Shown here in pieces: positions 29,791 to 30,257 of a DNA stretch of 64,000 nucleotides. A program made the translations under genes and the position numbers. Each line of letters begins with the position of its first letter. Position 1 is the stretch's first letter. The notes under the pieces were generated by a model that was not told where the DNA came from, made no database searches, and was given only the letters and a program-made list of their open reading frames with translations. The stretch is from assembly GCA_964016885.1 (NCBI GenBank), contig OZ024760.1:10044001-10108000 (forward strand). The letters are read 5' to 3'. This DNA comes from Eledone cirrhosa (lineage: Eukaryota).

Positions 29791-29796
<6 letters not shown>

Positions 29797-30257
29797 GGAA
29801 TAGAATGAAACGAAATTTCATTTCTCACTCTTAGTACGGCACTTACTTAAATGTAAGTATGTATGTATACGTACATACATATATGTATACAGACGTACAG
29901 TAGCAGTTATATATATATACATACAGGCACACATATATATATGCACGTATCAGTTTACCGAACATTTATTATAATGTTCGCTTTGTTCGTTTGTAAACAA
30001 ACGGACAGCCTGATTTACGCCGTACAGTGTTCAGGCAACCACGTCACCTTTTTGTTCAACACTGACACAGGAACGATGTACTAGTTTCAAGCTTGTTAGC
30101 TATCGTCAGCACCGTATACCTTTCTGCCAGATGGTTGAACGTTCGAAAGTATATACTTTCCTTATGAAAATTAACGGCTGAGCAGCCTAATTTGCATATA
30201 GAGTGAGTTCAGTCGGCCAGGCGCACCGAAAACGATAAATGGAATAGAATGAAACGA
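29791..30257 (-). mobile_element. Family E: about 445-nt retrozyme-like monomer with terminal direct repeat
   Basis: ATAAATGGAATAGAATGAAACGA at both 29791 and 30236; (TA)n on both sides; internal hammerhead. Confidence 0.75.
30075..30113 (-). ncRNA. Minimal type I hammerhead ribozyme motif
   Basis: GGTG-CTGACGA-T-AGCT-AACA-AGCT-T-GAAA-CTAG-TA-CATC: intact core, palindromic ACTAGT stem III, GUA triplet, stem I GGTG/CATC. Confidence 0.85.

Follow-up and report, generated by a model that had tools for sequence, protein, structure and literature searches.

A one-armed copy of a 444-nt hammerhead repeat in Eledone cirrhosa, likely primed at one of two fixed sites by a Penelope-like enzyme

What kind of copying leaves an insert that carries the same 23 nt at both ends and a ribozyme in its interior? 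This question was raised by positions 29791-30257 of the window, that is, of the whole 64,000-nt stretch of DNA analyzed here. A sequence-only reading had described a unit-length copy lying between two (TA)n tracts and reverse-transcribed, from an arbitrary point, slightly more than once round a circular or concatemeric RNA. The terminal repeat was confirmed: the 23-mers at 29791-29813 and 30235-30257 (both minus) were identical, and they were the only two occurrences in the window. However, the second copy begins at 30235 rather than 30236, and the single repeat unit (29791-30234, minus) measures 444 nt rather than 445 nt. In RNA sense the insertion lies on the minus strand, with a fixed 3' end at 29791 and a 5' end truncated at 30257. 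The 3' junction is a (TA)39 target tract (29716-29793), which overlaps 3 of the 23 nt (ATA) of the first 23-mer. A flanking (TA)n tract was thus present on the left, but the tract at the 5' junction (30257-30291) is shorter and AT-rich, and it also forms the 3' end of another hammerhead element (core 30441, minus).

The unit is non-coding and has a GC content of 38%. Its longest ATG frame was 40 aa in sense and 73 aa in antisense, an ORF for reverse transcriptase (RT) and GIY-YIG was absent from it, and by its sequence the element is non-autonomous. Unit positions were counted in RNA sense from the first base after the predicted ribozyme cut, so that 29791 corresponds to position 288 and 30257 to position 266. 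An internal (TA)n zone at 29906-29942 varies in length from unit to unit. The 444-nt family and a 468-nt sister family have in common a motif at 30190-30197 (minus), which we take to be octamer-like and which is a possible promoter element.

We searched for the ribozyme by motif scan, which found a minimal type I hammerhead at 30074-30114 (minus) and a type I motif, supported by conservation, in each unit. It consists of a 5-bp stem I, a CUGACGA core, a 4-bp stem II with a basal U-U, GAAA, and a minimal palindromic stem III, and cleavage is predicted after GUA, between 30079 and 30078. Rfam gave no match to a hammerhead in the window at the gathering score and no hammerhead among 32 matches down to E=10, and the single-strand fold of the motif showed no gain over shuffled sequences (z 0.01). 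The interior position and the motif of the proposed hammerhead were upheld, and its description as intact therefore rests on the motif and its conservation. Across the wider family, sampled at 40 loci that are 82-97% identical, recurrent variants, defined as those present in at least four loci, fell on 0 of 14 hammerhead core positions as against 54 of 281 positions outside. Only three hammerhead positions varied, namely N7, loop II, and a stem I G-U pair changed to A-U. Since the lineages are not independent, these data are suggestive of selection on the ribozyme. The palindromic stem III allows pairing between two copies, which suggests that the hammerhead may act as a dimer; amphibian motifs that act as dimers have been described (PMC7229834). 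Among the hammerheads of metazoan non-LTR retrozymes (PMC7229834; 10.64898/2026.07.22.740005), the axolotl motif HHR_Amex2 resembles that of the 444-nt family in the basal U-U of stem II, and HHR_Amex1 resembles it in the weak palindromic stem III. Li et al. (10.64898/2026.07.22.740005) reported cleavage in only one of nine predicted retrozyme dimers.

The size and arrangement of the family were then taken from the host genome (~3.0 Gb). The exact 40-nt hammerhead stretch occurred 664 times, and the 19-mer just past the cut site 16,030 times, which gives a wider group of at least 16,030 units. Its youngest subfamily is 92% identical and gave 8,235 exact pattern matches. Copies vary in size, from fragments up to arrays of about 30 head-to-tail units, and the unit is 444 nt, or longer where the internal TA expands. 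Within arrays the 23-mer recurs once per unit with unit sequence continuing on either side, and it is therefore part of the unit and not a target-site duplication. With its tandem, non-coding, hammerhead-bearing unit the family is classed as of the non-LTR retrozyme type, as had been proposed, and as a new family of a known kind. An array at C14:25.11-25.14 Mb (L110-L112) contained more than 40 unit pieces; its haplotypes form a mosaic and some of its parts are inverted, which points to growth in the manner of a satellite once it had been inserted.

We analyzed insertion ends in loci selected solely by an exact hammerhead match. The first 100 of the 664 matches gave 75 independent insertions, of which 73 were curated by hand (L013, a single A, and L014, A+B, were left out). 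The data showed that the RNA-sense 3' ends lay at two fixed sites, A and B, about 55 nt apart; all outer 3' ends but one were at A or B, and they nearly always adjoined (TA)n (L059 is the flank exception). One arm of L092 (position 1696) had its 3' end at unit position 3, the predicted cut site, rather than at A or B. Two arms, inverted relative to each other, were present in 49 of the 73 insertions: 47 were A+B, one was A+A, none was B+B, and one had the odd arm. The remaining insertions were one-armed (15 single B and 9 single A). One A was thus combined with one B in 47 of 48 two-armed insertions (P 2e-13 for pairing). The 5' ends, on the other hand, were scattered. Among the short B arms, 8 of 22 measured 0.12-0.14 unit, which is exactly the stretch from B to A.

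In the window, site B, the outer fixed end, corresponds to 29791-29799 (minus; unit positions about 280-288), and site A, the inner one, to 29848-29856 (minus; about 223-231). End mapping and folding define a tail of about 55 nt between them (29791-29847, minus), and the first 23-mer is the end of this tail, adjoining site B. Both sites adjoin predicted hairpins; that at site A is of 6 bp (29841-29858, minus), and its loop contains the commonest break of the site. The 80 nt around the tail folded better than 200 of 200 shuffled sequences (z -3.3). The window insertion is a single B arm, 5'-truncated, of 1.05 units, and the second 23-mer is the opening 23 nt of its second pass through the unit.

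The partial relatives noticed in the window were real. An older relative at 43961-44222 (plus, 81% identity) covers unit positions 18-288 and ends at site B, so that it starts where the window copy does; another lies at 10303-10581 (plus) and ends near site A, and its stretch 10303-10509 (82% identity) covers positions 24-231. Both are truncated ahead of the hammerhead and lack it. The window also holds other hammerhead elements. Ten copies of another family, in related variants, lie at 21980, 23192, 23367, 24283, 24640, 38097, 43425, 45170, 62617, and 62694; three pairs are inverted, and the inspected copies end at (TA)n, some with a tail of roughly 90 nt and some lacking it. Two further families are represented at 24953 and 30441 (minus) and at 56970, 60135, and 29407 (minus). 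One copy of each flanks 29791-30257, and the locus is therefore a nest of hammerhead elements joined by TA tracts. Single hammerhead-like motifs were present at 821 (minus), 22402 (plus), 39768 (plus), and 53957 (minus), of which only the last two passed a stricter descriptor. At 9731 (minus) and 9804 (plus) lies a short two-armed insertion with a tail on one arm only; it consists of the 3' end of a Penelope-type family that is protein-coding and has a hammerhead of its own.

Next, the enzyme that might produce such ends was considered. A Penelope enzyme studied in vitro cuts both DNA strands and extends them, prefers AT-rich DNA, and uses two internal RNA start sites that bound a tail (PMC11167929). 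In that system insertion is no less efficient with ribozyme mutants, and the RNA used is mainly uncut (PMC11167929). Since such an enzyme starts internally, in vitro without need for ribozyme cleavage, an interior hammerhead is expected anyway and, other than had been thought, is no sign of permutation. Penelope-like elements also show 5' truncation, an inverted copy, and a tail at one end (PMC8557442).

The host genome contained 10,596 candidate GIY-YIG sequences, and a Pfam scan of long frames found RT in 8 of 9 and GIY-YIG in 7 of 9. A coding RT and GIY-YIG family of the same genome, with its own hammerhead, had the same two ends and the tail at one (L194, L195, L200, and L206). A search of 90 GIY-YIG stretches, partly overlapping and drawn from 150 listed matches of the 10,596, gave no coding partner with the 444-nt unit as terminal repeat, and we therefore infer the partner enzyme: a Penelope-like reverse transcriptase/endonuclease likely copied the 444-nt element. 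Candidate active Penelope-type enzymes were seen in open frames of 938, 844, and 1096 aa, stop to stop (L191:3809-6622, L192:2488-5019, and L193:1775-5062), with a cysteine motif ahead of the GIY-YIG domain; these elements are presumably Neptune-like. The only BLAST match near a GIY-YIG gene, at L220, turned out to belong to a separate sister retrozyme with a unit of 466-468 nt. This sister (465-468 nt; L220:1-900 and L271-L290) is 63% identical to the 444-nt family, gave 5,114 exact hammerhead matches, and has the same tail hairpin and octamer-like motif. Its unit length is constant inside an array and varies among loci.

The lengths of the arms were used to examine the template. Complex loci (L047, L052, L042, and L092) were left out of these counts, and top-score loci were kept out of the length statistics. 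Arms longer than one unit made up 53 of 114, and 10 of 114 reached two units. The template was therefore circular or concatemeric, in agreement with the earlier proposal. One-armed copies ending at 1.0-1.2 units were in excess (9 vs 4.2 expected, P 0.014), but two-armed copies were not (8 vs 9.5 expected), so that the claim of slightly more than one round found modest support, and this in the one-armed copies alone; with all arms pooled no stall after one round was detected (17 vs 13.7, P 0.19). Of the nine one-armed copies, four were A arms that stopped at or close to the (TA)n zone inside the unit. Because 5' ends are scattered, the 23-nt overlap itself speaks only weakly for a circle.

The sequence variants carried by the arms were also analyzed. 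Of 34 informative loci, 33 had the same haplotype in the two arms of the insertion, and in 35 of 37 arms the tandem units agreed in haplotype; an alternative haplotype occurred in 41 of 93 loci. Both arms therefore came from one RNA, the shape of which these haplotypes leave undecided. In L014 a variant was common to both arms but out of register, and a register test between arms gave no consistent pattern in 16 loci. In arrays of the youngest subfamily, up to about 19 units long, the units differed by 0.03-0.05% (29 loci). Seven rare variants in these loci were fixed in all of at least three units, two of them in 7 of 7, and five more were partly fixed. Rare variants fixed over whole young two-armed arrays imply a single-unit bottleneck somewhere, with new mutations arising in single units. 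The 468-nt sister family (19 loci) had 11 locus-private fixed changes, of which 6 were A-to-G and none was T-to-C; three of the six lay in a cluster and were carried by every unit of both arms (20 of 20), a pattern as expected if one edited unit had been read repeatedly. No A-to-G bias was found in the 444-nt family, either among rare fixed variants of the young subfamily (0 of 12) or among private fixed variants of the window's subfamily (0 of 8); a variant counts as private here if it was confined to one locus among the 19 to 95 that were sampled. On these variants, the template was probably a circle.

Taken together, the window insertion is a one-armed, 5'-truncated copy of a 444-nt hammerhead repeat, the copies of which were likely primed at A and B next to (TA)n by a Penelope-like enzyme, probably from a unit-length RNA circle. 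Transcripts of tandem copies would be cut by the hammerhead, which probably acts as a dimer, into units that are then likely circularized, as the conservation of the motif and other retrozymes suggest. A Penelope-type enzyme would cut a (TA)n tract on both strands and prime on the RNA at A and B, one per DNA end, in line with the observed ends and their pairing. Each arm would read through the ribozyme site and halt at a scattered position, as is seen in the copies, and the arms would join head to head, or a single arm would join the target directly. In the window, the B arm alone would have been kept; it halted 23 nt beyond one unit, and hence the 23-nt terminal repeat. A more specific reading is offered tentatively, at somewhat below even confidence: an enzyme dimer would bind one ribozyme-made circle at the two hairpin-marked sites 55 nt apart, one for each cut (TA)n end, both subunits would roll round the same circle, and one-armed copies would tend to stop at the enzyme's own start.

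The alternative that survives best, though we regard it as unlikely, keeps the same Penelope-type insertion at A and B and replaces the circle with a linear transcript, left uncut, of a whole tandem array; the 23-nt overlap would then mean that 5' truncation happened by chance to fall in the second unit. That uncut RNA is preferred and the ribozyme dispensable in vitro fits it (PMC11167929), and so do the long arrays as possible sources, the small number of arms that reach two units, and the missing one-round stall over all arms. Arrays can also be homogenized by duplication at the DNA level, and a three-unit block was indeed duplicated at C2:85.13 Mb. Such reshaping of arrays, seen also in the haplotype mosaic at C14 and in the five partly fixed variants, counts against the circle, as does the lack of A-to-G bias in the 444-nt family. 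However, the bottleneck required by the variants fixed through whole young arrays, the clustered A-to-G changes, hard to derive from a concatemer, and the hammerhead core conserved across subfamilies all speak against a linear transcript and for the circle.

A cut linear monomer, with multi-unit arms produced by an enzyme that jumps from the RNA 5' end back to a 3' end, either on that monomer or on a different one, is improbable. It would also provide the single-unit bottleneck, and in a small sample 5 of 69 matches had a break no more than a few nt away from the cut site; single loci broken near this site are L078, L118, L057, and L092. However, the cut site was traversed without scars in nearly all matches, and no genome-wide excess of breaks was found there: 42 matches vs 80 in a control window, with pass rates of 0.19 and 0.18. 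In this count both patterns miss junctions into TA tracts, and the control includes many small indels and has a base count that is only estimated (58 vs 69 in the sample).

Reverse transcription of a circle from arbitrary points, which would give randomly permuted unit-length copies, is very hard to maintain. It agrees with the modest surplus of one-armed copies that end at 1.0-1.2 units, but four of these nine are the A arms halting at or near the (TA)n zone, and its start point is refuted by the fixed outer 3' ends of the 73 insertions: genomic copies vary at the 5' end and not at the 3' end, and the window copy starts at B. Least tenable of all, and refuted as well, is an ordinary target-site duplication, or a satellite spread by DNA recombination alone, which the DNA-level growth of some arrays might have favored, since the 23-mer is internal to the unit, copies are dispersed, polarized, and 5'-truncated, and no convincing flank duplication was found in 16 one-armed loci, where TA targets can hide one.

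The Penelope-primed circular copying that we prefer was compared with known systems as the accessible text of the cited sources describes them. Metazoan non-LTR retrozymes are non-coding tandem units of 150-450 nt with low GC and a type I hammerhead in each, and they occur as monomers to long multimers (PMC7229834; 10.64898/2026.07.22.740005); the 444-nt family agrees with them in these features. Their hammerheads are canonical, with tertiary contacts between loops 1 and 2, and a target-site duplication, when there is one, is large; in the 444-nt family stem III is minimal and palindromic, and the 16 one-armed loci, whose TA targets can hide a duplication, gave no convincing one. Penelope elements have been proposed as retrozyme mobilizers from co-occurrence and pLTR homology, and copying from circles has been proposed as well, in these texts without demonstration from insertion ends (PMC7229834; 10.64898/2026.07.22.740005). 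In comparison with the retrozymes described there, the insertion ends found here carry a Penelope signature, namely two fixed starts, a tail, inverted arms, and a (TA)n target. RNA, cleavage, and circles have been shown for those retrozymes (PMC7229834; 10.64898/2026.07.22.740005), whereas the 444-nt family is known from genomic sequence. It shares with Penelope-like elements 5' truncation, partial tandems, an inverted 5'-truncated copy, a tail at one end, a microsatellite or AT-rich target, two internal starts, and a hammerhead near the 3' end (PMC8557442; PMC11167929). Unlike them, it lacks an ORF, and its tail is about 55 nt rather than 30-40 nt. The near-strict A+B pairing per insertion is a feature of the 444-nt family that the accessible text of PMC8557442 and PMC11167929 does not report for Penelope-like elements; Frangieh et al. 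(2024; PMC11167929) found the start site to be no different between strands. The literature covered, namely openly accessible main texts, held no account of the 444-nt family or of start sites used in pairs by retrozymes; the tables of the preprint and Supplementary Figure S9 of PMC7229834 may bear on this novelty.

The entry of animal retrozymes into DNA has so far been proposed and not shown. The ends of the 444-nt family tie a retrozyme to Penelope-type enzymes. They show exactly where copies start, and together with the tail and the pairing rule these sites are open to testing in the existing in vitro system. The 23-nt overlap that first drew attention to the locus is a minor by-product and carries little of that weight. 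If the reading in which an enzyme dimer shares one circle is true, the genome would record rolling-circle, two-ended reverse transcription, a step that is proposed but not shown in the accessible text of PMC7229834, the preprint, and PMC11167929.
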